Below the pieces are notes generated by a model that did not search any database, was not told the DNA's origin, and worked only from the letters and a program-made list of their open reading frames with translations. A stretch of 64,000 bases of DNA from Escherichia coli (GTDB taxonomy: Bacteria; Pseudomonadota; Gammaproteobacteria; Enterobacterales; Enterobacteriaceae), in assembly GCF_024502345.1 (NCBI RefSeq), contig NZ_JALDNN010000001.1. One strand, given 5' to 3'. Positions 26,492 to 52,598 of the stretch are shown piece after piece; position 1 is the first letter of the stretch, and each line of letters starts with the position of its first letter. The position numbers and the translations under genes were made by a program.

Positions 26492-26738
26492 GATATGGGG
26501 TTTGGTCGTTGTTAATGAGCACGACAATCATGACCGCCAACGACTGGATTCTTCCTTGGTTTATACTGGTGCGCATAATGTATATTATGTTAAATCACCT
26601 ACAGTGACAAATAAGTTCATAAGCCTCTCCCACTAACTGATAAATCAATACGTTAGAATTTCGGATCGCCATCTCGTTTCTTGCATTAGGTACAGAGTAC
26701 ATTCTCTTCATGTCCATGGTAATTGTGAGGTAAATGTC

Positions 26739-28133
26739 GTGTATTCAGTAAACCAGTTGGTTATCTCGGGCTGCAAACGGCAATGGATCCTGATGGACAC
26801 GGAAACCTCTATGCCGTTGCTGTATCCCCTTAGGTACCATATTGACCATTTAGCTTTCCGCTCATTGTCCACGCAGTCAGCTTCACTGCAATCTGTGAAG
26901 TTTTTTTACGAATTCTGGAATCAAAAGTATGGTGTCTCGTTTTGCTACAGCTTCTATTCATCTGGCCACAATCCAGACATCGCCGTCAGCGAAATGCCCG
27001 CATTTTGGCTGTATCTGGAAAATGGCCACAACGTCCAGTCAAATGTGTTGTCTTTAACAAGAGCCACCAAAGCCAGTAGCTTAACTCACGCAGCCAGAGT
27101 TCGTGCCGTGATTCATTTTCTTTCTTTTTTGATTAACACTTACATATCACCCGCATACCGGGACGACACGCCCAAAGCATTAACCCTTTTGGCCTCGCGT
27201 CTACACACCCGTTTGCAGCTTTGTCGGGATAATTATCGAACGCTTACACCAAACAAATTTTCGCTACGTAGTCACAACAGCCAGGGGTTTCAGAGTCTGT
27301 CTGGTGCAATGGTGCTCAGCCTGTATGGGATAATAGCCCCCTCTTCTGCCCAAAAGCATAATCCACTAAACCCTTTCCCTTCCGGACATCTTCAGTTCCG
27401 CAATTTTTTAATTATTCGCCTGTTATTAAATTATGGTTTACGAATAGGTGAGCTATTGTTGTTAGAGTGCAGTTCAATCAAACCAAATTTAAGAGGTGAT
27501 AAATTCAGTTTGATTGTGACAACTGTCGATGGGGGGTACGAACCAAGAAAAAATGCGCCGTCTCTCAAAAATGCATGGGCTAACCGTGTATTAGAACTCG
27601 ACAAGCAAGATTATATTTATTTAAGTATTTATATAGAAAAAATCCGGCCCAAAACACATAAGCACGATTTCATCTTTATATCGAGTCAACAGTCAAGAAA
27701 ACCATTGTCCTATACATCAGTTCATTCTATTTTTTCGAAAGTCGATAAGGTCTTTACTGATCAACACCCAGAGTACAAATCGCCCTTGTACTCTGATTCG
27801 TTGCAACGATTGACACCACATACAACCCGACATACTTGGGCCTTTTTGACATTGCAAAGAATATGGCATTCAAAATATTTGAGAAATCAGCTAAACAAAA
27901 CACACTTTGTTGCTGGAGTCCCTTCCCTCACAGGAGTAATGGAAGAAGCAAAAGATGAGCTACGGCTGATTGGAGGATGGAGCCCGACTAGTCAAATGCC
28001 TGATCTATATGCAAAACGCTTCCTTTCTGAGCAGGCTAATACTGCCAATATCCAACGTATTATTCAAGATAATGCTGCGCTGCAGAATACGTTAAATACA
28101 ATAATGGATAAATATAACGATGAGTTCATTTGA
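26739..28133 (+). CDS. tyrosine-type site-specific recombinase with a long N-terminal extension
   Basis: 464-aa ORF; C-terminal catalytic motifs GLRIGELLLLE, HTTRHTWAF and GGWS...LYAKRF; AT-rich; true start uncertain. Confidence 0.65.
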   Translation: MYSVNQLVISGCKRQWILMDTETSMPLLYPLRYHIDHLAFRSLSTQSASLQSVKFFYEFWNQKYGVSFCYSFYSSGHNPDIAVSEMPAFWLYLENGHNVQSNVLSLTRATKASSLTHAARVRAVIHFLSFLINTYISPAYRDDTPKALTLLASRLHTRLQLCRDNYRTLTPNKFSLRSHNSQGFQSLSGAMVLSLYGIIAPSSAQKHNPLNPFPSGHLQFRNFLIIRLLLNYGLRIGELLLLECSSIKPNLRGDKFSLIVTTVDGGYEPRKNAPSLKNAWANRVLELDKQDYIYLSIYIEKIRPKTHKHDFIFISSQQSRKPLSYTSVHSIFSKVDKVFTDQHPEYKSPLYSDSLQRLTPHTTRHTWAFLTLQRIWHSKYLRNQLNKTHFVAGVPSLTGVMEEAKDELRLIGGWSPTSQMPDLYAKRFLSEQANTANIQRIIQDNAALQNTLNTIMDKYNDEFI

Positions 28134-28308
28134 ACATACACTAAAATTTGATGAAGAGAGTTCAATTTACCCTGCTGATTTAGCTCAGGCAATCATTGAA
28201 CTTAAGGTTCCTGAGCGGATTTATCTAAAGACGGCTGTGGGGTTTGATGATAAATACATAATTAATAAAGGGAGCAAATGGACTTTTGATTACTCTGGTA
28301 GTCGGTGA
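28120..28308 (+). CDS. hypothetical small protein (62 aa) overlapping the recombinase stop
   Basis: ORF overlaps the recombinase 3' end by 14 bp; no recognisable domain. Confidence 0.3.
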   Translation: MSSFEHTLKFDEESSIYPADLAQAIIELKVPERIYLKTAVGFDDKYIINKGSKWTFDYSGSR

Positions 28309-28404
28309 TACCTTGTTTTTAATCAAGATAACATCTCAAATAAGCTAAACAAATATATTTGTTTCAAATATGCATCGACAAGATTCCCAACCAGGCTTCC
28401 AGCG

Positions 28405-28693
28405 TTGCATCTTGACTGGAGAAAAGCCATCACATATTGCCGGGAATATGGCGGATTTTCGTTTAGTACGCTCCGACTATTTATAGAAAGAGATAACATT
28501 GACAATGCTGTTTTTTATTCTGTGTTGTTCGGGTTAAAAATACTTTGTTCTGAAGCATTCCCGGGTTTCAGTCTTGAAGATTATGATGATCTGGAGTTCG
28601 TCCCTCGACCGCATCTCGATCGTTGGGGAGTTTATCAGGAAATCGATAATGTTCTTGATCCTCTCGAAAAAAATATGATTTGTAATGGGCTGT
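28405..28693 (+). pseudogene. hypothetical protein whose frame runs into IS903 copy 3 (3' end truncated)
   Basis: 99-aa ORF 28405..28704 whose last residues are encoded by the IS903 end. Confidence 0.3.
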
Positions 28694-29751
28694 GGCTTTG
28701 TTGAATAAATCGAACTTTTGCTGAGTTGAAGGATCAGATCACGTATCTTCCCGACAACGCAGACCGTTCCGTGGCAAAGCAAAAGTTCAAAATCACCAAC
28801 TGGCCCACCTACAATAAAGCCCTCATCAACCGTGGCTCCATAACTTTCTGGCTGGATGATGAAGCTATTCAGGCCTGGTATGAGTCAGCAACACCTTCTT
28901 CACGAGGCAGACCTCAGCGCTATTCTGACCTTGCCATCACGACTGTGCTTGGTCATTAAACGCGTATTCAGGCTGACCCTGCGCGCTGCGCAGGGCTTTA
29001 TTGATTCCATTTTTTCTCTGATGAACGTTCCGCTACGCTGCCCGGATTACAGCTGTGTCAGCAGGCGGGCAAAGTCGGTTAATGTCAGTTTCAAAACGCC
29101 CACCCGGGGTGAAATCGCACACCTGGTAATTGATTCCACCGGGCTGAAGGTCTTCGGTGAAGGCGAGTGGAAAGTCAAAAAGCATGGCCAGGAACGCCGC
29201 CGTATCTGGCGTAAGCTGCATCTCGCCGTTGACAGTAAAACACATGAAATCATCTGCGCTGACCTGTCGCTGAACAACGTTACGGACTCAGAGGCCTTCC
29301 CCGGGTTAATCCGGCAAACCCACCGGAAAATCAGGTCAGCCGCCGCCGATGGCGCTTACGATACCCGGCTATGTCACGATGAACTGCGGCGTAAGAAAAT
29401 CAGCGCGCTTATCCCTCCCCGAAAAGGTGCGGGTTACTGGCCCGGTGAATATGCAGACCGTAACCGTGCAGTGGCTAATCAGCGAATGACCGGGAGTAAT
29501 GCGCGGTGGAAATGGACAACAGATTACAACCGTCGCTCGATAGCGGAAACGGCGATGTACCGGGTAAAACAGCTGTTCGGGGGTTCACTGACACTGCGTG
29601 ACTACGATGGTCAGGTTGCAGAGGCTATGGCCCTGGTACGAGCGCTGAACAAAATGACGAAAGCAGGTATGCCTGAAAGCGTGCGTATTGCCTGAAAACA
29701 CAACCCGCTACGGGGGAGACTTACCCGAAATCTGATTTATTCAACAAAGCC
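28694..29751 (+). mobile_element. IS903-type insertion sequence, copy 3, 1058 bp, frameshifted transposase, no target duplication
   Basis: Extra T (gtgcttggtcatt versus gtgctggtcatt) splits the transposase into ORFs 28726..28959 and 28856..29695; flanks atgggctgt and cctgctgga differ. Confidence 0.9.
28726..29695 (+). pseudogene. IS903-type transposase, frameshifted
   Basis: Two overlapping ORFs together cover the transposase. Confidence 0.85.
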
Positions 29752-30490
29752 CCTGCTGGAACACATTGATCGTATTGAAGATAATATTACTGAATATGAC
29801 CGGATTTTGTCCCGCATGGCAAAAACAGATCACCGCAGCCAGCGATTGATGGAACTGAAAGGGATTGGTCCCACAACGGCCTGTGCGCTGGTCGCCAGTA
29901 TCGGTAATGCACACGATTTTAAAAATGGGCGACAACTGGCAGCCTGGCTGGGACTAACGCCATCGCAGTACAGCAGTGGTGGGAAATCAAAGCTTGGCAG
30001 GATAACTAAAGCTGGCGATTCGTATCTGCGAACGCTACTGGTTCAGAGGGCTCGTTCGGTTCTGATTGGTGCCGAGAAAAGGACTGATTTATTCAGTCGT
30101 TGGGTCTGTTCACTGGTCGATCGCAGAGGATACTGGCGTGCCGTTGTAGCCATCGCCGCCAAAAACGCAAGGCTGTGCTGGCATCATTGCATTACGGTGA
30201 TGATTTCAGGCTGTACTCAGCCAGCTAAAGCACGAAACAAAATAACCATCTGACCTGCAATTCGTTGATGATAAAGGGTTAGACCCCGTGAGGCCTATCT
30301 GGCTATTGTACAGGATATACGTATCCGCTTAACGAACAAGAACCTCACGCGCGTCTTTCATCAGGGTCCGAATCGATGACGATTCATCATGGCCGTTTAT
30401 AGTACCGCAGTCTCTCCCCTTTATTTTTACTGAAGAGCAGACAGAAACCATAAACACCGGCGTTGACACGCCGGGGAAGCCCTTATAGTA
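29752..30490 (+). mobile_element. IS110-family element, 3' fragment (transposase C-terminus plus non-coding end), truncated by IS903 copy 3
   Basis: ORF 29807..30253 matches the C-terminal 140 residues of the transposases at 37205..38269 and 38640..39662; 30254..30490 matches their 3' non-coding ends in reverse complement. Confidence 0.8.
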
Positions 30491-30628
30491 CAATAATTTT
30501 CGAAATCCAACCCATCCCGCCTACAGGAATGACGGATTTTTCGGCGGTTCCGGCGTAGACCCACCACAACTGCTGTATAGCTTGTGGGTAAGTGATAATG
30601 AAGTGCAAACGAGATGGCGCAAATACTC

Positions 30629-30675
30629 TTTTGGTTTATCTTTTAATTACTTACGTATTAAAAGATAAACCAAAA
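30629..30675. repeat. perfect palindrome, 17-bp arms with 13-nt spacer
   Basis: ttttggtttatctttta - attacttacgtat - taaaagataaaccaaaa. Confidence 0.9.
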
Positions 30676-30783
30676 AATAAAAGACATTACTGTTATCCCC
30701 TTTAAAAAGTGGATAACCGAACAGCATCGGCGCGAGCGCCTCAAAAGTAGCTCCCCACGCTAAAGCGCGGGGCATTCAGAACG

Positions 30784-30828
30784 GAATCCCTCGATGGCTA
30801 ACAGCTCGCCTGTTAGCCATCGAGGGAT
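30784..30828. repeat. perfect palindrome, 20-bp arms with 5-nt loop
   Basis: aatccctcgatggctaacag - ctcgc - ctgttagccatcgagggatt. Confidence 0.9.
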
Positions 30829-31127
30829 TGGACAAATCCGGCCACGCCGGATACGTCAGCAAATATCGCTGAAGAATTAGCTTACACGCTCGTAAGCGGC
30901 TCTTACGACCCGCTAACGCGGAGATACGCCCCAACTGCGGCTTCGCCTTGTTGTGACCACTCCGACCGCGCACAAAAGCCTCTGAGCCGCTTTTAGCGGA
31001 ATATGGCTTTGCAAGGTGAAGGGATGGATAGGCGATCCCTTTCGATCCCTCACTGGTATCGGCGGCTAACCCTCGGTGCTACCTGTCATTTCATCCTGCC
31101 GCCTTACATGCGCTAACGCGCATAAAT

Positions 31128-31165
31128 CCCCGTTCCTCAGTGGAACGAAAACTCACGCTAACAGG
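31128..31165 (+). repeat. relic of a Tn3-subgroup 38-bp terminal inverted repeat
   Basis: tccccgttc-CTCAGTGGAACGAAAACTCACG-ctaacag matches the core of the Tn3 repeat GGGGTCTGACGCTCAGTGGAACGAAAACTCACGTTAAG; inner end faces higBA. Confidence 0.6.
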
Positions 31166-31200
31166 GTAGTGACCGGGTAGCCACGATAACTGCCAACAAA

Positions 31201-31251
31201 ATTAGCTTATAGGTTAATTCTACCTTGTCTGAAATTAGCCTATAGGTTAAT
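31201..31251 (+). promoter_or_regulatory. two copies of an 18-bp near-palindrome upstream of higB (candidate operator)
   Basis: attagcttataggttaat (31201..31218) and attagcctataggttaat (31234..31251), followed by tattaat and a GGAGG ribosome-binding site. Confidence 0.55.
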
Positions 31252-31273
31252 ATTAATAGAAATGGGAGGTCAC

Positions 31274-31603
31274 ATGTTTAGCGTTGTTTATCACCCGGAA
31301 GCCAGGGAAGAAGCCACAGCATTACCCGTAAAAATCAGGGTGAAGTTTGACCGTCTCATCGGCAAACTGGAGTATGACGCCCGATTACTGCGGGAGCCGG
31401 ACACGAAGCCCCTGGGCGATGGACTTTTTGAGATCCGCACGATGGGGACGGACATAGCCAGGGGAATCTGGGTATACCACAAAGGCAATACCATCATCAT
31501 GCTCCGTGTTTTCATCAAGAAGTCACAGAAAACGCCAGCGAAAGAAATCGATCTCGCCAAAAAGCGGTTAGCGGAGGTACTTAATGAAACTGGTAAGCCA
31601 TAA
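31274..31603 (+). CDS. higB: RelE/ParE-superfamily toxin (HigB-like)
   Basis: About 110 aa from MFSVVYHPEAREEA; toxin precedes and overlaps an XRE-HTH partner by 20 bp, the HigBA arrangement. Confidence 0.7.
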   Translation: MFSVVYHPEAREEATALPVKIRVKFDRLIGKLEYDARLLREPDTKPLGDGLFEIRTMGTDIARGIWVYHKGNTIIMLRVFIKKSQKTPAKEIDLAKKRLAEVLNETGKP

Positions 31604-31865
31604 AGAACTGCATAACGAGTGGATGCAGGACGATGAATATCGCGCTGCATGGCAGGAAGAAGAACGTAAGGAAAAGCTCAGGGAGCTGCTTGCTGAATGG
31701 CGCAAGCATGACAACCTGACAAAAGCGCAGGTTGCTGAACGCATGGGGGTTACACCTCCGGTTATTTCTCGCCTGGAAAACAACATCACCAAAGCCAGCA
31801 TCGACACACTGACCCGCTACGCTCACGCCTGCGGCATCAAGAAACCTGTCATTGCCCTGTACTGA
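31584..31865 (+). CDS. higA: XRE-family HTH antitoxin (HigA-like)
   Basis: 93 aa; HTH segment LTKAQVAERMGVTPPVISRLEN. Confidence 0.7.
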   Translation: MKLVSHKELHNEWMQDDEYRAAWQEEERKEKLRELLAEWRKHDNLTKAQVAERMGVTPPVISRLENNITKASIDTLTRYAHACGIKKPVIALY

Positions 31866-31867
31866 AT

Positions 31868-31897
31868 AGCCAGCCCTCCGGGGCTGGCCTTTTTGTT
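31868..31897 (+). terminator. rho-independent terminator after higA
   Basis: agccagccc-tccgg-ggctggcc followed by tttttgttt. Confidence 0.7.
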
Positions 31898-32074
31898 TCG
31901 GTCAGTCCCAAAATTTTGTTAAAGCAAGTTTAAAATGTCACCTGTTTCTCCAAAGTTGAAATGTCACTTCTAAGCCAATCTATTTATACATAATCTTTAC
32001 ATCTTTCCCCGGTGACAAAGTGCTAATTGGTCTGTAATGTTCAATGTGTGGCAGGCAAGCCGCCGGTGACTTAG

Positions 32075-33270
<1,196 letters not shown>

Positions 33271-33439
33271 TTAATATAAAGACACAAGCAGAGACATTTT
33301 TGGCACGATATAAAAACGCTAAGTTAAAAAATCACTATGACGTGTTGGGTATCAAATGTTCACTGGCATAAACCTCTGTTTCTGATGTAAAACAGATTTT
33401 CTGAGGAGGCGTAAAACCTCCTCGTACTGCGAAATTGAT

Positions 33440-33940
33440 TTAGTGATAGCGATCGATCACGCCAACCAGATAGTGGTCGGTTTGCTGCATGTTGATGCCC
33501 GCTTTTTTAGCGCTGCGGACTTCATCCAGAATGATTTGCAACAGCGTCCCGTCCACGATTTCCTCTTTTCTGTATCGCTTCAGGAAGTTAATCGCTGACT
33601 TATCGTTTGCTGCCTGGGCGTCTTCCGTCAAAGAGGTCAGCGCATTAATGCGCTTCTGGTAATCGCTTACCGTCTGCTCAAACAGATCTTCCAGCGTGGA
33701 AAATTCACCGCACCGGGCGTGTTGCTCCTGTAACACCGGCGTGGCGCCGCTCTGTTTGATGTATTCGTACATGCGCATCATTTGCGTCACCGTATTTTGC
33801 GCCTGATGACGCAAAAATAGTGCGGTGCCATTAAGGCTATTCTCGCTGCACCTCTGGCTGAGCTGAAGATACAAATTTGAGGTATAAAACTCCTGATTCA
33901 TTTGCGCATTCAGTTTTTGAACTATTCCGCTAGCGATCAT
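33440..33940 (-). CDS. ferritin-like protein (FtnB/YecI-like paralog)
   Basis: 166 aa; NAQMNQEFYTSNLYLQLS and TQMMRMYEYIK resemble recalled E. coli FtnB at roughly half identity; hairpin terminator downstream. Confidence 0.7.
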   Translation of the reverse strand: MIASGIVQKLNAQMNQEFYTSNLYLQLSQRCSENSLNGTALFLRHQAQNTVTQMMRMYEYIKQSGATPVLQEQHARCGEFSTLEDLFEQTVSDYQKRINALTSLTEDAQAANDKSAINFLKRYRKEEIVDGTLLQIILDEVRSAKKAGINMQQTDHYLVGVIDRYH

Positions 33941-34358
33941 AGGACTTCCTTATTTCTTGTCATCTCAGAAAACGGTCACTCTTCGAAAAAATAACCAGAA
34001 TAAAAGCGATTCTTTCGCTTTTTTTATTGCGCCTGGTTACGCAGTCATATTCATTTTAAGTCGGGATGCTCCTTATTTAAATATCCAACCCTACTATCGC
34101 ATTTCTATCTGGCATTATTCTGTGATGGTGTTTCGATATTCACACTCCCTGTGCCAATCCTTTCTTATCGACAGTAGGAAACTTCCTCCGGCTATTCTGC
34201 TGAACACGATTAGGGGCACTGTTGCAAAGTTAGCGATGAGGCAGCGTTTTGTCTTATTCAAAGGCCTTACATTTCAAAAACTCTGCTTACCAGGCGCATT
34301 TCGGGTGATGCTGCCAACTTACTGATTTAGTGTATGATGGTGTTTTTGAGGTGCTCCA

Positions 34359-34634
34359 GTGGCTTCTGTTTCTATCAGCTGTCCCTCCTGTTCAGCTACT
34401 GACGGGGTGGTGCGTAACGGCAAAAGCACCGCCGGACATCAGCGCTATCTCTGCTCTCACTGCCGTAAAACATGGCAACTGCAGTTCACTTACACCGCTT
34501 CTCAACCCGGTACGCACCAGAAAATCATTGATATGGCCATGAATGGCGTTGGATGCCGGGCAACCGCCCGCATTATGGGCGTTGGCCTCAACACGATTTT
34601 CCGCCATTTAAAAAACTCAGGCCGCAGTCGGTAA
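34359..34634 (+). CDS. insA: IS1 InsA
   Basis: 91 aa [30 protein letters not shown]... Confidence 0.9.
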
Positions 34635-35056
34635 CCTCGCGCATACAGCCGGGCAGTGACGTCATCGTCTGCGCGGAAATGGACGAACAGTGGGGATACG
34701 TCGGGGCTAAATCGCGCCAGCGCTGGCTGTTTTACGCGTATGACAGGCTCCGGAAGACGGTTGTTGCGCACGTATTCGGTGAACGCACTATGGCGACGCT
34801 GGGGCGTCTTATGAGCCTGCTGTCACCCTTTGACGTGGTGATATGGATGACGGATGGCTGGCCGCTGTATGAATCCCGCCTGAAGGGAAAGCTGCACGTA
34901 ATCAGCAAGCGATATACGCAGCGAATTGAGCGGCATAACCTGAATCTGAGGCAGCACCTGGCACGGCTGGGACGGAAGTCGCTGTCGTTCTCAAAATCGG
35001 TGGAGCTGCATGACAAAGTCATCGGGCATTATCTGAACATAAAACACTATCAATAA
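34553..35056 (+). CDS. insB: IS1 InsB reading frame (expressed as InsAB' by frameshifting)
   Basis: 167-aa [24 protein letters not shown]... overlapping insA. Confidence 0.9.
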
Positions 35057-35066
35057 GTTGGAGTCA

Positions 35067-35747
35067 TTACCGCATTTCGCCCAGGGGATCACCATAATAA
35101 AATGCTGAGGCCTGGCCTTTGCGTAGTGCACACATCACCTCAATACCTTTGATGGTAGCGTAAGCCGTCTTCATGGATTTAAATCCCAGCGTGGCGCCGA
35201 TTATCCGTTTCAGTTTGCCATAATCGCATTCAATCACGTTGTTCCGGTACTTAATCTGTCGGTGTTCAACGTCAGACGGGCACCGGCCTTCGCGTTTGAG
35301 CAGAGCAAGCGCGCGACCATAGGCGGGCGCTTTATCCGTGTTGATGAATCGCGGGATCTGCCACTTCTTCACGTTGTTGAGGATTTTACCCAGAAACCGG
35401 TATGCAGCTTTGCTGTTACGACGGGAGGAGAGATAAAAATCGACAGTGCGGCCCCGGCTGTCGACGGCCCGGTACAGATACGCCCAGCGGCCATTGACCT
35501 TCACGTAGGTTTCATCCATGTGCCACGGGCAAAGATCGGAAGGGTTACGCCAGTACCAGCGCAGCCGTTTTTCCATTTCAGGCGCATAACGCTGAACCCA
35601 GCGGTAAATCGTGGAGTGATCGACATTCACTCCGCGTTCAGCCAGCATCTCCTGCAGCTCACGGTAACTGATGCCGTATTTGCAGTACCAGCGTACGGCC
35701 CACAGAATGATGTCACGCTGAAAATGCCGGCCTTTGAATGGGTTCAT
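35067..35747 (-). CDS. tnpA: IS26 transposase, C-terminally truncated by the IS1 insertion
   Basis: MNPFKGRHFQRDIILWAVRWY...GDPLGEMR then stop; the recalled native protein continues LVSRVFEM. Confidence 0.85.
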   Translation of the reverse strand: MNPFKGRHFQRDIILWAVRWYCKYGISYRELQEMLAERGVNVDHSTIYRWVQRYAPEMEKRLRWYWRNPSDLCPWHMDETYVKVNGRWAYLYRAVDSRGRTVDFYLSSRRNSKAAYRFLGKILNNVKKWQIPRFINTDKAPAYGRALALLKREGRCPSDVEHRQIKYRNNVIECDYGKLKRIIGATLGFKSMKTAYATIKGIEVMCALRKGQASAFYYGDPLGEMR

Positions 35748-44770: not shown

Positions 44771-47755
44771 ATGCCACGGCGACAGATACTGAGCAGCGAA
44801 GAGCAGGAACGCTTACTGGTTATACCAGATGATGAAATTATTCTGACCCGAATGTGTTTTCTGAACGAACCGGATATTGCGCTCATTAATAAGCACCGAA
44901 GGCCAGCGAATCGCCTGGGCTTTGCTGTATTACTCTGTTATCTGCGTGGACCTGGATTTATTCCGGACAAAAGCAGTGCTCCTCACAATGGCGTTGTATC
45001 CAGGGTTGCTTCCCGACTGAAACTTCAGCCTGATTTATGGCCGGAATATGCATCCAGAGAGCAAACCCGCTGGGAACATCTGACCGAACTTTATCGCTAC
45101 CTGGAACTATCCCCGTTCAGCCGGTCAATGCAAAAAGACTGTATCCGTCATCTGCACCCCTATGCCATGCGAACTGACAAAGGATTTATGCTGGCGGAAG
45201 AAATGCTCAGCTGGCTACATAACAATAATGTTATTTTCCCTTCTGTTGAAGTGATCGAACGGACGCTTGCCGAAGTCGTCACGCTCGCTAACAGATCGGT
45301 ATTTTCGACACTTACCGCGCAACTGGAAAAGCAGCATAAATCAGCACTCGACAGCCTGCTCATATCAGAGGGTGAACAACCTTCCCGTCTGGCATGGCTG
45401 CTACAGCCTCCGGGTAAAATAAACGGTAAAAATGTGCTGCAACATATCGACCGGCTTAATTCCATCGCTGCGCTGGGGTTGCCTGATGGTATTGCACTTT
45501 CCGTTCACCAGAACAGGTTGCTTAAACTGGCGCGTGAGGGCCGGAAAATGAGCAGCAGGGACCTGGCAAAATTCACCGATGTCAGACGTTACGCTACGCT
45601 GGTTTGTATAATAACAGAGGCCAGGGCCACCCTGACTGACGAAGTGATTGATCTGCACGAGCGTATCCTGGGTAGTCTGTTCAGCAGGGCAAAACGCACG
45701 CAGGCCGAACGGCTCCAGCAAACGGGAAAGCTTATTCAGAGCAAGCTGAAGCAGTACGTTACCGTCGGGCAGGCGTTACTTAACGCCAGAGAATCCGGGG
45801 AAGATCCCTGGACTGCAATAGAAGATGTCCTTCCCTGGCAGGAATTCATCAACAGCGTGGAAGAAACGCGGTTTCTTTCCCGTAAGGGCAATTTCGACGC
45901 GCTTCATCTGATCACCGAAAAATACAGTACGTTGCGTAAATATGCCCCGCGTATGCTGTCAGCATTGCAGTTCATGGCGACACCTGCGGCGCAGGCGCTC
46001 AGCGATGCGCTGGACACCATAACGGAAATGTACCGTAAACAACTTCGTAAAGTGCCGCCATCAGCGCCAACAGGGTTTATCCCTGAAAGCTGGCGAAAAC
46101 TGGTGCTCACGCCTTCAGGCATCGACCGCAAGTACTACGAGTTTTGCGTACTGAATGAACTCAAGGGTGCATTACGTTCCGGTGATATCTGGGTAAAAGG
46201 ATCGCGCCGCTACAAAAATTTTGATGATTATCTCATCCCGACTGCTGAGTTTGAGAAATCCCGACATAATGACCAGTTACAGTTGGCCGTTCAGACCGAT
46301 AGCCAGGCATACCTTCAGGCCCGTATGACTCTTCTTGCATCTCGGCTGGAAGAAGTTAACGCGATGGCGCTTGCCGGTGATTTGCCCGATGTAGATATCT
46401 CAGATAAAGGCGTAAAAATCACTCCACTGGAGAACAGCGTTCCTTCAGGTGTTTCGCCCTTTGCAGATTTGGTCTATGGCATGCTTCCCCATCCGAAAAT
46501 TACGGAGATACTGGAAGAAGTTGATAGCTGGACGGGATTTACGCGTCACTTCGCGCACCTCAAAAATAATAACGTCAGACCAAAAGACGGAAGACTGTTG
46601 CTGACCACCATTCTGGCTGACGGCATCAACCTTGGGCTGACAAAAATGGCGGAATCCTGCCCTGGGGCCACAAGATCGTCACTCGAAGGTATTCAGACAT
46701 GGTACATCAGGGATGAAACTTATTCAGCGGCACTGGCCGAGCTGGTCAACGCACAGAAAGAGCGGCCTCTGGCCGCATTCTGGGGCGACGGGACAACATC
46801 GTCGTCAGACGGGCAGAACTTTCGGGTAGGCAGTCACGGACGTTATGCCGGTCAGGTCAATCTTAAATATGGTCAGGAGCCGGGCGTGCAGATTTATACG
46901 CATATCTCAGACCAATACAGCCCGTTCTACGCCAAAGTGATCAGCCGGGTGCGCGACTCAACCCACGTGCTTGATGGCCTGCTGTACCATGAAAGCGATC
47001 TGGAAATTACCGAGCATTACACCGATACCGCAGGCTTCACTGAACATGTTTTCGCCCTGATGCACCTGCTGGGATTCGCTTTTGCGCCAAGGATCCGTGA
47101 TCTTCATGACAAGCGGCTGTTTATTCATGGAAAGGCCGAGCGCTATCCGGGGCTTCAGTCTGTCATATCAACAACCTGCCTGAATATCAAAGACATTGAG
47201 TCGCACTGGGATGAGGTATTGCGCCTGGCAACCTCGATTAAGCAGGGGACAGTCACCGCATCACTGATGATGAAAAAGTTAGCCAGTTACCCAAAACAGA
47301 ATGGACTTGCCAAAGCGCTGAGAGAGATTGGCCGCATCGAACGGACACTATTTATGCTGGACTGGTTCCGTGATCCCGGTCTGCGCCGACGCGTGCAGGC
47401 GGGGCTGAATAAGGGTGAGGCCCGTAATGCCCTTGCGCGAGCGGTCTTTTTGCACCGTCTGGGTGAAATAAGGGATCGTGGGCTGGAGAATCAGAGTTAT
47501 CGCGCCAGCGGGCTGACATTACTGACAGCAGCGATCACGTTGTGGAACACGGTATATATAGAAAGAGCTATTGAGTCACTAAAACGAAAGGGTATCCCGA
47601 TAAATGAGCAACTGGTCTCTCATCTTTCTCCCCTGGGCTGGGAACATATCAATCTGAGTGGAGATTACGTCTGGCGTAATAATCTTAAGCTGGGATCCGG
47701 AAAATACCGCTCATTACGTACAGTCGATACCGCTTTGTACAAAAAACAGTCTTAG
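44771..47755 (+). CDS. tnpA: Tn3-family DDE transposase
   Basis: 994-aa ORF; stop codon lies inside the terminal repeat. Confidence 0.85.
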   Translation: MPRRQILSSEEQERLLVIPDDEIILTRMCFLNEPDIALINKHRRPANRLGFAVLLCYLRGPGFIPDKSSAPHNGVVSRVASRLKLQPDLWPEYASREQTRWEHLTELYRYLELSPFSRSMQKDCIRHLHPYAMRTDKGFMLAEEMLSWLHNNNVIFPSVEVIERTLAEVVTLANRSVFSTLTAQLEKQHKSALDSLLISEGEQPSRLAWLLQPPGKINGKNVLQHIDRLNSIAALGLPDGIALSVHQNRLLKLAREGRKMSSRDLAKFTDVRRYATLVCIITEARATLTDEVIDLHERILGSLFSRAKRTQAERLQQTGKLIQSKLKQYVTVGQALLNARESGEDPWTAIEDVLPWQEFINSVEETRFLSRKGNFDALHLITEKYSTLRKYAPRMLSALQFMATPAAQALSDALDTITEMYRKQLRKVPPSAPTGFIPESWRKLVLTPSGIDRKYYEFCVLNELKGALRSGDIWVKGSRRYKNFDDYLIPTAEFEKSRHNDQLQLAVQTDSQAYLQARMTLLASRLEEVNAMALAGDLPDVDISDKGVKITPLENSVPSGVSPFADLVYGMLPHPKITEILEEVDSWTGFTRHFAHLKNNNVRPKDGRLLLTTILADGINLGLTKMAESCPGATRSSLEGIQTWYIRDETYSAALAELVNAQKERPLAAFWGDGTTSSSDGQNFRVGSHGRYAGQVNLKYGQEPGVQIYTHISDQYSPFYAKVISRVRDSTHVLDGLLYHESDLEITEHYTDTAGFTEHVFALMHLLGFAFAPRIRDLHDKRLFIHGKAERYPGLQSVISTTCLNIKDIESHWDEVLRLATSIKQGTVTASLMMKKLASYPKQNGLAKALREIGRIERTLFMLDWFRDPGLRRRVQAGLNKGEARNALARAVFLHRLGEIRDRGLENQSYRASGLTLLTAAITLWNTVYIERAIESLKRKGIPINEQLVSHLSPLGWEHINLSGDYVWRNNLKLGSGKYRSLRTVDTALYKKQS

Positions 47756-47788
47756 CGTGGGATAATTTCCGTTTTCCAAGCGGACCCC
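47751..47788 (-). repeat. 38-bp terminal inverted repeat of the Tn3-family element
   Basis: Reverse complement reads GGGGTCCGCTTGGAAAACGGAAATTATCCCACGCTAAG. Confidence 0.85.
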
Positions 47789-47858
47789 AGGGAGAGCTGA
47801 GAACATTAAATTTTAATATAAACAAAGAATTACCTTCTTAGCGTACGTTACCGTCCCA

Positions 47859-48092
47859 TTGGCCCTCAAACCCCTCAACACCCTGATGGAACGTTTTTTT
47901 AGAAGTCTGAAAACAGAATGGGTGCCGGATAATGGATACGCTAATTTTAGCGAAGCCAGCACAGCGATAACGAATTACATAACGGGATATTACAGCCAGC
48001 TCAGACCTCATCAATATAACGGTAGTTTGACGCGGAATGAATCAGAACGATTGCTCTGGAAAAACTCTAAAGCCGTGGCCAACTATTGTTGA
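47859..48092 (+). pseudogene. IS3-family integrase (orfB) C-terminal remnant
   Basis: 77-aa ORF with the YYSQLRPHQYNG motif typical of IS3-family integrase C-termini. Confidence 0.5.
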
Positions 48093-48103
48093 CCACTACA
48101 CAT

Positions 48104-48571
48104 CTATTTTATAGGTAACCCCTTAAAAGATTTAATCTCCTTGATACTGAAACTGGTATTCATCTCCTTTATATTCCCAATTTTTCGTATCCTTATCATT
48201 GATACGTTGTGAAAATCATCCATATCTTTTACTACAAGATGCAGAAGATAGTCGTATCTTCCGGAGATATTATGACAGGCAATTACATTATCAATCTTCA
48301 TTATTTCTGCCTCAAAATATTGCATGCACTCCTCGGAATGAAGATCTAATGTAATATTCATGAATGCATAAAAATTGTATCCAAGGCTTTTCGGTTCGAT
48401 AAAAGCCCGATAGTTTTTTATCACTTCCTGCTCTAAAAACTTTAGCCGTTTCCAGCAGGCTGGAGGGGAAAGAAAAACACGCTTGGCAATCTCAGCGTTG
48501 TTCAGCCTGCCATCTTCCTGCAAGAAATTTAAAATCTGCATATCAACTTTGTCAAGCTTTACCATGTTCAA
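48104..48571 (-). CDS. Lrp/AsnC-family transcriptional regulator
   Basis: 155 aa; N-terminal HTH (LDKVDMQILNFLQEDGRLNNAEIAKRV) and C-terminal ligand-binding fold. Confidence 0.75.
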   Translation of the reverse strand: MNMVKLDKVDMQILNFLQEDGRLNNAEIAKRVFLSPPACWKRLKFLEQEVIKNYRAFIEPKSLGYNFYAFMNITLDLHSEECMQYFEAEIMKIDNVIACHNISGRYDYLLHLVVKDMDDFHNVSMIRIRKIGNIKEMNTSFSIKEIKSFKGLPIK

Positions 48572-48773
48572 CCTCCTGTGATAGCAATCATATTCGTAAT
48601 TTTATGAAATAAAATTAACCAAATCAATAAAAACAAGAAATAAGATAAGCCATAAATTGTAAAAATAGTTAATTTTAAAAAGATAATTAATATACTTACC
48701 GGGTAGAATCATTTATGAAGTGCAAACCTCTGTAAATAATTACCATAAAATATCCTCACACAGGAATATACCT

Positions 48774-50081
48774 ATGACCATATTGGAACAGAACATCGAC
48801 AGGGCCTCATTATCGCCAGAAGAGTGGAAAAAACTAACCCGATTTGACAGTACAGATGTAGGATGGATTATCATAAGCATAGGTATGGCTATCGGCGCCG
48901 GGATTGTGTTTTTACCGGTCCAGGTGGGGCTTATTGGATTGTGGGTATTCCTGCTTTCTTCCATCATTGGTTATCCGGCCATGTACCTGTTTCAAAGATT
49001 GTTTATCAATACGCTGGCAGATTCACGAGAGTGTAAAGACTATCCCGGTGTCATCGAGGGCTATCTGGGAAAAAACTGGGGAATGCTCCTCGGTCTGCTC
49101 TACTTTCTCATGCTGGTCATCTGGATATTCGCCTACCCTACGGCGTTGACTAACGATACAGCGTCGTATTTACACACGTTTGGCTTAACTGAGGGTCTTT
49201 TATCAGAGAACCCTTTCTATGGCCTAATTCTTATTACATTTCTTGTGCTTATTGCTTCACGTAGTGAAGAGCTCTTGTTCAGGATTTCCTCTTTCATGGT
49301 GTTATCAAAACTGGTGGTAGTGCTTATCCTGGGGTTGATGATGGTCAGCATGTGGGACCTCTCCAAAAACATCGGTTCATTCCCTTCTTTTAGTATTTTA
49401 ATCAAAAACGCCATTATCACCTTGCCATTTACGTTGACATCAATCCTGTTTATTCAGTCTTTGAGTCCGATGGTAATTTCATATCGTGCAAAAAACAAAT
49501 CTATAGAAGTGGCAAGATATAAAGCGCTAAGAGCAATGAATATCGCTTTTGGTACACTATTCATCGTTGTTTTCTTTTATGCATTATCATTCACTTTCGC
49601 CCTCGGTCACGATGAAGCTGTCAAAGCCTACGAGCAAAATATTTCAGCACTGGCTATTGCCGCACAGTTTATTGAAGGAGATGCAGCAAAGTATGTGACG
49701 CCAGTTGGTGTTGCATTGAATATCTTTGCCCTGATGACTGCCTTCTTCGGCGTTTACCTCGGGTTCAAAGAGGCTGTACAGGGACTGGCGATGAACGCAT
49801 TGACCCGTTTTATACCTTCAGAGAAAATCAATAAAAAAACGCTTAATGTTGGTATTGTCATTTTCACTATTGCCATCGCCTGGGGGGCAATCGTTCTGAA
49901 CCTGCCGGTTCTGCTATTCACCTCAATCTGCAGCCCCATTTTCGGCATTGTTGGTTGCTTAATCCCTGCTTATCTGGTTTACAAGGTACCCTCCCTTCAC
50001 CGATATAAAGGGTTTTCTCTGTATCTGATCATCTTTACTGGCATCCTGCTCTGTATTTCTCCGTTCCTGAAATTCATTTAA
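48774..50081 (+). CDS. HAAAP-family amino-acid transporter (serine/threonine/aromatic type)
   Basis: ORF 48720..50081; motifs AIGAGIVFLP and AYLVYKVPSLHRYKG resemble recalled TdcC/SdaC; polytopic. Confidence 0.7.
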   Translation: MTILEQNIDRASLSPEEWKKLTRFDSTDVGWIIISIGMAIGAGIVFLPVQVGLIGLWVFLLSSIIGYPAMYLFQRLFINTLADSRECKDYPGVIEGYLGKNWGMLLGLLYFLMLVIWIFAYPTALTNDTASYLHTFGLTEGLLSENPFYGLILITFLVLIASRSEELLFRISSFMVLSKLVVVLILGLMMVSMWDLSKNIGSFPSFSILIKNAIITLPFTLTSILFIQSLSPMVISYRAKNKSIEVARYKALRAMNIAFGTLFIVVFFYALSFTFALGHDEAVKAYEQNISALAIAAQFIEGDAAKYVTPVGVALNIFALMTAFFGVYLGFKEAVQGLAMNALTRFIPSEKINKKTLNVGIVIFTIAIAWGAIVLNLPVLLFTSICSPIFGIVGCLIPAYLVYKVPSLHRYKGFSLYLIIFTGILLCISPFLKFI

Positions 50082-50112
50082 ACAAACATATATGTCCAAA
50101 GAAGGTTAAATT

Positions 50113-51318
50113 ATGAAGTACAATTTTGATGAAATTATCAACAGAAAAAATACTGATGCCCTGAACTACGATGGGTGGAGACAATATATATTCAAGGCCG
50201 ACAAGAGTGCCCGCTTTGACTTTAAGGACGATGAATTTGTCAGAATGTGGGTCGCTGATATGGATTTTGCGACACCTCCGGAAATCCTTGCAGCGATTCA
50301 GGAGAGGCTTGATAAAAAAATACTCGGTTACACAAAAGTTTACGATGATGAGTACTATCATATTTTCCACAACTGGTGCCAGAGACGCTATGACTGGAAT
50401 ATAGATACCACAGAGATCGTGCTTTCACCGGGCATTATTCCTGCACTTAACCGTCTGGTACCGTTACTGACACAACAGGATGAAAGTGTGTTGATCAATA
50501 CACCATCCTATACGCCGTTTAAGCAGGCTGGAGACTATAGCTATCGTCGAGTGATCTGTTCTGATTTGCTGAAACAGGACAATGAATACATTATTGACTT
50601 CAACGATATGGAGAAAAAACTAACCGATCCTTCTCTAAATATTAAGCTGTTCATTTTATCCAATCCGCAAAATCCAACCGGGATGGTCTGGTCAGAACAA
50701 GAATTAATGAGAATGGGGCAGTTGTGCCTTAAAAACAATGTCTGGATCATTTCAGACGAAATACATTGTGATTTACTGAGAAATGGGATCAATCATATCC
50801 CGATGGCAAAACTGTTCCCAGACACTGATAAGATCATCACCTGTATGGCACCAAGCAAAACCTTTAATCTTGCCGGAAATCTGATGTCCCATATTTTTAT
50901 TAAAAATGAAAAGGTCAGAAAAGAATGGTTACGTCTTTATGATGAGTTTCTTTCACCACTGAGTCTGGCTGCGACCAAAGCGGCCTGGTCCCGGTGCGAC
51001 GAGTGGCTGGAACAATTAAAACACTATCTTGATGATAACTTCAGACTGGTAGAAAAATTTACCCAGGAACACTTTCCTGACGCAAACTTTAAAATTCCCG
51101 ATGCAACTTATCTGGCATGGATAAATATTGAGAAATACCTGCCACCGCAGGTAGACAGACAACAGCTTTCTCTCTATTTCGCCAACCAGACGGGAATACT
51201 GCTTGAAGGCGGGAACATGTTTGTAAGCAATGGAGAGGGTTACATACGGATTAATCTTGCCTGTCCACGCGCCGTGATACAAGAAGGATTAGAGAGAATA
51301 AGAAAAGCACTGAAATAG
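50113..51318 (+). CDS. PLP-dependent C-S lyase, MalY/PatB type
   Basis: 401 aa, aminotransferase class I/II fold with MalY/PatB-like N-terminus MKYNFDEIINRKNTDALNYDGW. Confidence 0.7.
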   Translation: MKYNFDEIINRKNTDALNYDGWRQYIFKADKSARFDFKDDEFVRMWVADMDFATPPEILAAIQERLDKKILGYTKVYDDEYYHIFHNWCQRRYDWNIDTTEIVLSPGIIPALNRLVPLLTQQDESVLINTPSYTPFKQAGDYSYRRVICSDLLKQDNEYIIDFNDMEKKLTDPSLNIKLFILSNPQNPTGMVWSEQELMRMGQLCLKNNVWIISDEIHCDLLRNGINHIPMAKLFPDTDKIITCMAPSKTFNLAGNLMSHIFIKNEKVRKEWLRLYDEFLSPLSLAATKAAWSRCDEWLEQLKHYLDDNFRLVEKFTQEHFPDANFKIPDATYLAWINIEKYLPPQVDRQQLSLYFANQTGILLEGGNMFVSNGEGYIRINLACPRAVIQEGLERIRKALK

Positions 51319-51507
51319 TAAATCCCTGAAAATTTCAGCCTGATCGTCCAAAAGGTCGCAGTTTAAACAATGCGACCTTTATACCGGATAATTTAGCATG
51401 TTGAACCGATTTTCGGAGACTCTCTATCGCGCTGGACGGCTCTGCATGTACATTGTCGCCTGAAAAATAATATCAGGGATATAAATAGCCTGTTAATACC
51501 TCGTTTC

Positions 51508-52565
51508 GGCTTTGTTGAATAAATCAGATTTCGGGTAAGTCTCCCCCGTAGCGGGTTGTGTTTTCAGGCAATACGCACGCTTTCAGGCATACCTGCTTTC
51601 GTCATTTTGTTCAGCGCTCGTACCAGGGCCATAGCCTCTGCAACCTGACCATCGTAGTCACGCAGTGTCAGTGAACCCCCGAACAGCTGTTTTACCCGGT
51701 ACATCGCCGTTTCCGCTATCGAGCGACGGTTGTAATCTGTTGTCCATTTCCACCGCGCATTACTCCCGGTCATTCGCTGATTAGCCACTGCACGGTTACG
51801 GTCTGCATATTCACCGGGCCAGTAACCCGCACCTTTTCGGGGAGGGATAAGCGCGCTGATTTTCTTACGCCGCAGTTCATCGTGACATAGCCGGGTATCG
51901 TAAGCGCCATCGGCGGCGGCTGACCTGATTTTCCGGTGGGTTTGCCGGATTAACCCGGGGAAGGCCTCTGAGTCCGTAACGTTGTTCAGCGACAGGTCAG
52001 CGCAGATGATTTCATGTGTTTTACTGTCAACGGCGAGATGCAGCTTACGCCAGATACGGCGGCGTTCCTGGCCATGCTTTTTGACTTTCCACTCGCCTTC
52101 ACCGAAGACCTTCAGCCCGGTGGAATCAATTACCAGGTGTGCGATTTCACCCCGGGTGGGCGTTTTGAAACTGACATTAACCGACTTTGCCCGCCTGCTG
52201 ACACAGCTGTAATCCGGGCAGCGTAGCGGAACGTTCATCAGAGAAAAAATGGAATCAATAAAGCCCTGCGCAGCGCGCAGGGTCAGCCTGAATACGCGTT
52301 TAATGACCAAGCACAGTCGTGATGGCAAGGTCAGAATAGCGCTGAGGTCTGCCTCGTGAAGAAGGTGTTGCTGACTCATACCAGGCCTGAATAGCTTCAT
52401 CATCCAGCCAGAAAGTTATGGAGCCACGGTTGATGAGGGCTTTATTGTAGGTGGGCCAGTTGGTGATTTTGAACTTTTGCTTTGCCACGGAACGGTCTGC
52501 GTTGTCGGGAAGATACGTGATCTGATCCTTCAACTCAGCAAAAGTTCGATTTATTCAACAAAGCC
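51508..52565 (-). mobile_element. IS903-type insertion sequence, copy 4, 1058 bp, same frameshift as copy 3, intact 9-bp target duplication
   Basis: Flanks cctcgtttc (51499..51507) and cctcgtttc (52566..52574); same extra base as copy 3. Confidence 0.9.
51564..52533 (-). pseudogene. IS903-type transposase, frameshifted
   Basis: ORFs 51564..52403 and 52300..52533. Confidence 0.85.
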
Positions 52566-52598
52566 CCTCGTTTCCTCTCTTCATGACACCCTGACTCA

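Follow-up and report, generated by a model that had tools for sequence, protein, structure and literature searches.

The insertion sequences (IS) IS903B and IS903, the latter known as the flanking element of Tn903, have a length of 1057 bp, perfect 18-bp terminal repeats, a 9-bp target duplication and a single DDE transposase of 307 amino acids (aa). It is well documented that defective IS copies persist or spread, through either trans-complementation or gene conversion, and IS-mediated rearrangements of the host chromosome are known biology as well. We analyzed a 64-kb stretch of an Escherichia coli chromosome (the window), in which five IS903B copies, numbered C1-C5 in order of position, were located by repeat finding and direct alignment. 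The copies are like IS903B and IS903 in length, terminal repeats, duplication and transposase; unlike them, C3 and C4 have a 1-bp insertion (an extra T, hereafter +T) in transposase codon 60, seen in no other copy searched. The resulting private null allele is the only new item at the locus.

Among the trans-mobilized non-autonomous elements, the closest parallels to C3 and C4 are the defective IS1 or mini-IS1 elements that are moved by InsAB' (PMC12903888) and elements resembling miniature inverted-repeat transposable elements (MITE-like). Shared with these are intact ends, the lack of a working transposase gene, the presence of intact partners and a clean target duplication. In contrast to them, IS903 is strongly cis-preferring, C3 and C4 are full length and not internally deleted, and inactivation before transposition is here only presumed. 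For gene conversion, the account of Cordaux 2009 that is given in PMC3205602 describes, as is the case here, an inactivating change common to non-allelic copies within one genome; the copies in that account are many, old and degraded and reside in an endosymbiont, whereas here there are two copies in a recent burst, with no visible tract boundaries. IS-mediated inversions and adjacent deletions classically leave swapped flanks, as seen at C1 and C2, and hybrid flanks, as seen at C3 and C5, and there is nothing unusual about those found here.

C1 (16836-17892, + strand), C2 (20247-21303, - strand) and C5 (57362-58418, + strand) are 100% identical to each other over 1057 bp, and their transposase genes are intact. 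C3 (28694-29751, + strand) and C4 (51508-52565, - strand) are likewise 100% identical to each other, over 1058 bp. The sole difference between the two groups is the additional T, and the five copies are without other polymorphism. The 18-bp terminal inverted repeat GGCTTTGTTGAATAAATC is present at ten of the ten ends, with 0 mismatches. When C3 was compared with copies annotated as 'IS5-like element IS903B family transposase' in numerous PLSDB entries, 1057 of the 1058 positions (99.9%) were identical, the single gap being the extra T. Since C3 differs from these plasmid copies by +T only, the intact copies of the window are effectively identical to them. Judged by length (~1057 bp), 18-bp ends, 9-bp duplication, single 307-aa DDE open reading frame (ORF) and near-identity, C1-C5 are ordinary IS903B (IS5 family, IS903 group). 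Solo IS903B ends able to supply partner flanks were not found in the window. IS903B has evidently been very active here in recent times, as 64 kb contain five copies identical but for +T, two of them at junctions, and an inversion.

The intact transposase starts with a GTG at element nucleotide (nt) 78 (window position 16913 in C1) and is encoded by a single ORF of 307 aa (16913-17836 in C1), in which PF13737 covers residues 19-130 and the DDE domain PF01609 residues 115-293. The extra base follows element nt 256, between GTGCT and GGTC, and gives GTGCTTGGTC; a T becomes TT, without a homopolymer run. Insertion of one T after nt 256 of C1 yields C3 exactly. In C3, the TT is found at 28949-28950 (+ strand; element nt 256-257, transposase codon L60), after which the frame reads CTT GGT CAT TAA; in C4 it is found at 52309-52310, where it is read as AA on the + strand. 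The frameshift lies inside the N-terminal PF13737, upstream of the DDE domain, and interrupts the ORF at codon 60-61. The truncated frame of C3 (28771-28959, + strand) encodes 60 native residues followed by Gly-His and a stop, which equals 62 aa from the GTG. A downstream ORF of 279 aa (28856-29695, + strand) returns to the frame of the transposase near residue 61 and keeps the DDE domain, and is without the first 39 positions of PF13737. Tavakoli et al. are said to have found, in 1997, that IS903 transposase binds the inverted repeats through its N-terminal part. As judged from their sequence, the +T copies would be transposase-null yet still substrates for transposase, because all 18-bp ends are perfect. 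Two of the five 'IS903B transposase' genes in the window are pseudogenes.

The rarity of the +T allele was assessed in several collections. A 61-nt probe centered on the TT gave no perfect match in PLSDB, where the best match was 60 of 61 (at least 8,979 IS903B places in at least 5,000 records). Again, no perfect match was obtained in 5,426 complete E. coli genomes, the best being 60 of 61 (3,204 places in 1,280 genomes). The exact 31-mer of +T was absent from the JGI metagenomes and also from the GTDB representative genomes, the latter search having low power (the wild-type control gave only 7 loci). None of the five possible gene products of the frameshifted copy (279, 278, 271, 77 and 62 aa) had an exact-protein record. 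The frequency of +T is below ~1e-4 per copy, and two independent origins among five neighboring copies are therefore not credible. In all, +T is absent from ~12,000 other IS903B places in PLSDB and the complete E. coli genomes; it arose once and was then copied within this lineage.

C4 arrived by simple transposition. The 9-mer CCTCGTTTC is present directly to the left (51499-51507, + strand) and to the right (52566-52574, + strand) of this copy, and the chance of such a 9/9 match of the flanks is ~4e-6. When C4 and one 9-mer were removed in silico, the resulting sequence showed 463/463 identity to E. coli VREC0864 (NZ_LR536431.1), in which the empty site contains a single 9-mer (L002 20208-20216). 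Both sides of C4 align to the VREC0864 chromosome at an identity of at least 99.9%, and their overlap is exactly those 9 bp. The site is thus uninterrupted in VREC0864, and C4 is therefore a simple insertion. Two further arrangements of C3 and C4 were considered and rejected. An inversion between them is ruled out; the duplication of C4 is intact, and the island on either side (see below) is collinear with VREC0864. The copies are inverted as in a composite transposon of the Tn903 type, but the outer flanks differ (ATGGGCTGT at 28685-28693 versus CCTCGTTTC at 52566-52574) and C4 has a duplication of its own. An earlier note on the window had described copies 3 and 4 as 1058 bp in length with the same extra T in the transposase gene, copy 4 as a simple transposition product with an exact 9-bp duplication, and copies 3 and 5 as lacking matching flanks, consistent with later IS-mediated deletions or rearrangements. 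The base-by-base alignment of the five copies and the empty site in VREC0864 bear out the former points, and the flanks of C3 and C5 discussed below agree with the latter. To this account can be added that the element is IS903B, that the intact copies measure 1057 bp, and that C1 and C2 are also without simple duplications, their flanks being swapped.

As to the origin of the second +T copy, the explanation that we favor, tentatively and with slightly less than even confidence, is the trans-mobilization of an already defective IS903B by transposase from intact copies. One T would have been duplicated in transposase codon 60 of one copy, leaving a 62-residue stub and both 18-bp ends intact. The defective element would then have been moved once by transposase from intact IS903B copies, of which three are present at 5-30 kb on the same chromosome and more are probable elsewhere. 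C4 would most simply be the daughter copy, because of its intact 9-bp duplication and the known empty site, and C3 would be the parent, with flanks altered by IS-mediated deletion or recombination. Perfect ends, a frameshifted transposase gene (loss of function being read from the sequence) and three intact partners are all present, as in a non-autonomous element. For IS1, it has been shown experimentally that a cis-preferring transposase acts in trans at high supply (PMC12903888). We infer on these grounds that the mutation preceded the insertion of C4 and that the transposase acted in trans.

A number of points weigh against trans-mobilization. The IS903 transposase is cis-acting and Lon-unstable (Derbyshire et al. 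1990, as quoted in PMC11903035), and IS elements in general prefer cis action (PMC3205602). The duplication at C4 shows arrival by transposition, not the presence of +T on arrival. Trans complementation of IS903 amounts to ~0.1-1% of the cis activity, and the mobilization of a dead copy is therefore a low-rate event. Furthermore, only two +T copies are seen, both within the 64-kb window, and there is no second polymorphism by which descent could be separated from conversion.

In the case of gene conversion, which is possible and in our view somewhat doubtful, C3 and C4 would both have inserted as intact elements; the extra T would have arisen in one of them and been copied to the other by RecA-dependent non-crossover recombination between 1-kb inverted repeats that are 21.7 kb apart. 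Copies with 100% identity over 1 kb are ideal recombination substrates, and three other features of the window, namely the inversion between C1 and C2 and the two hybrid junctions (C3 and C5), can be read as IS903B recombination. No trans action is needed from a cis-preferring transposase, and there is precedent among dead IS copies, at least as Cordaux 2009 is presented in PMC3205602. The duplication at C4 is compatible with conversion too, as flanks are untouched by a non-crossover event; had C3 and C4 undergone a crossover, this duplication would have been split, and such an outcome is therefore excluded. However, there is no direct evidence for conversion, and tract boundaries are invisible because the copies differ at one position only. 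Moreover, intact copies outnumber the mutant by at least three to one, so that conversion without bias should remove +T more often than spread it. Trans-mobilization and gene conversion had both been put forward in the earlier note; they stay the two leading explanations, and are inseparable without another polymorphism. In the collections searched, no relative was found in which the C3, C4 or C5 site is filled, nor one with a different filling at C4.

An assembly artifact is an unlikely source of the shared allele. The extra T would in that case be real in one copy at most, or in none, and would have been assigned to two copies during repeat resolution or polishing. Identical 1-kb repeats are a classic site of variant mis-assignment in hybrid or short-read-polished assemblies, and +T is present in no other public sequence searched. 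These points have to be set against the context of the insertion, in which a T becomes TT and a homopolymer is lacking, and against the position of the affected copies on opposite strands, with three copies of the same context unaffected, which excludes a systematic context error. In addition, 21.6 kb of the window was compared with independent assemblies (99.85-99.97%), and 3-bp and 5-bp differences were the only ones of their kind, without a single 1-bp indel; the compared backbone genes have their RefSeq-annotated lengths. Random sequencing error is unlikely to have produced +T, and the suggestion, raised earlier as what could undo the observation, that the extra base is an artifact in a homopolymer-like context is improbable in this form; mis-assignment of a real variant among the repeat copies during assembly keeps a small probability.

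It is very improbable that the +T element is not truly dead and that it transposes itself in cis, owing to rare +1 ribosomal slippage between the extra T and the stop (CUU GGU CAU UAA), by which enough full-length transposase would be made. The bypass window is only three codons long and ends in a stop codon able to stimulate +1 shifts, but a slippery motif is absent, the P-site codons CUU and CAU are expected from the sequence to re-pair poorly in the +1 frame, and in thousands of IS903B copies the transposase is encoded by a single ORF that is without the extra base. A programmed-frameshift transposase in the style of IS1 or IS3 was rejected as well; every other IS903B place examined is single-frame, and the site is without a slippery motif. 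The variant in which the mutation arose twice is very improbable in view of the frequency of less than ~1e-4 per copy.

In principle, the products of the +T allele, i.e. the 62-residue N-terminal stub or an N-terminally truncated, DDE-retaining protein made from the internal ATG at 28856, might act as dominant-negative inhibitors of IS903B, by analogy with the inhibitor protein of IS50, but we consider this most improbable. If true, an inhibitor-encoding +T allele, spread by trans-mobilization or by conversion, would damp the ongoing IS903B burst. The allele has little significance beyond this genome; it provides a clean natural example of a null allele at two sites, in an IS with a cis-acting transposase.

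In C3 and C5, unlike in C4, the left and right flanks do not match, and neither copy has a target duplication. The left flank of C3 (ATGGGCTGT) belongs to a tyrosine-recombinase gene, of which the 5' 574 nt are present; it is the second gene of a three-recombinase element and is uninterrupted in other E. coli, where this element follows hipA. The right flank of C3 (CCTGCTGGA) begins inside an IS110-family element (L002 37547). For C5, the left flank (ATCTTCCGG), on the island side, ends inside the gene for the A-subunit of a dimethyl sulfoxide (DMSO) reductase (L002 25000), which is truncated, and the right flank (CCGGTTGAA) consists of truncated chromosomal yddB, followed by pqqL and gadB; there is no target duplication. 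C3 and C5 each join unrelated sequences at a rearrangement junction, which marks them as junction copies from IS-mediated deletion or recombination. Between hipA and the point in yddB, ~16.9 kb of native chromosome (the ydeQ-yddA region elsewhere) has been replaced by a mosaic island of ~31.8 kb (26597-58418). The lsr-hipBA-yddB region has thus been heavily remodeled by IS903B, the changes comprising an inversion, the two junction copies and the replacement of ~17 kb of native DNA.

An origin of C3 and C5 from a single ancestral junction, each copy representing one half of it, through integration of a circular element was considered and rejected, because the 9-mer of the C3 left flank is not the same as the C5 right flank, unlike in a simple cointegrate. 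Synthetic junctions were also used as queries; neither the C5 left flank, IS and C3 right flank in PLSDB nor the C3 left flank, IS and C5 right flank in E. coli gave an identical junction. By exact-protein look-up, the 690-aa DMSO-reductase fragment is on record and is not specific to the C5 junction, and for the truncated YddB there was no exact-protein record.

Blocks of the island are >99.8% identical to the island of E. coli VREC0864, and the order of the blocks is different. In VREC0864, the block adjoining C3 (L002 37547 onward) is found downstream of the block adjoining C5 (which ends at L002 25000). The left end of the three-tyrosine-recombinase element, located after hipA, occupies 26584-28693 of the window; the element is intact in the E. 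coli contigs L005, L008 and L010. The surviving parts are the first integrase gene (26739-28133) and the 574 nt of the second gene, which is cut by C3 and has in addition a CGA to TGA nonsense change at 28306-28308. In 17 complete E. coli genomes an IS903-type element is present within ~1 kb of this stretch of yddB (58419-58718 in the window), at several distances, and yddB may be a recurrent target.

At C1 and C2, the 9-bp flanks are reciprocally swapped (16827-21312), so that neither copy has a simple duplication. C1 has GCTGGCTTG on the left and ACACCTAAG on the right, and C2, read in its own orientation, has ACACCTAAG on the left and GCTGGCTTG on the right. Comparison with E. coli SCU-316 shows that the 2354-bp segment bounded by C1 and C2 (17893-20246, - strand) is inverted and that a second, oppositely oriented copy of the 9-mer CTTAGGTGT (L001 35156-35164) is present. 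An autotransporter gene of the ECSE_1600 family is split by the inversion; its 5' part, carried by the inverted segment, is found at 17862-19793 (- strand), and its 3' part starts at 21304 (+ strand). Two insertions followed by recombination, or equally one intramolecular replicative transposition, could have produced the inversion, as the predicted end structure is the same.

Other mobile elements are present in the island. An IS3-family element of 1.3 kb (41897-43231), with ORFs at 41961-42356 and 42314-43195 and the domains HTH_Tnp_1 and rve, interrupts a gene for a GlxA-type regulator that is intact in VREC0864. A Tn3-family transposase gene (44771-47755) is intact and encodes 994 aa; in VREC0864, 5 bp are inserted in this gene, and its annotation is that of a frameshifted gene. 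VREC0864 also contains a copy of IS5075 at the position equivalent to 47767, which is lacking in the window. Finally, three copies or fragments of IS110-family elements are found at 29752-30501, 36935-38372 and 38372-39751, with a mutual identity of 79-91%; the first of these is cut short by C3 and lies in the opposite orientation to the others.

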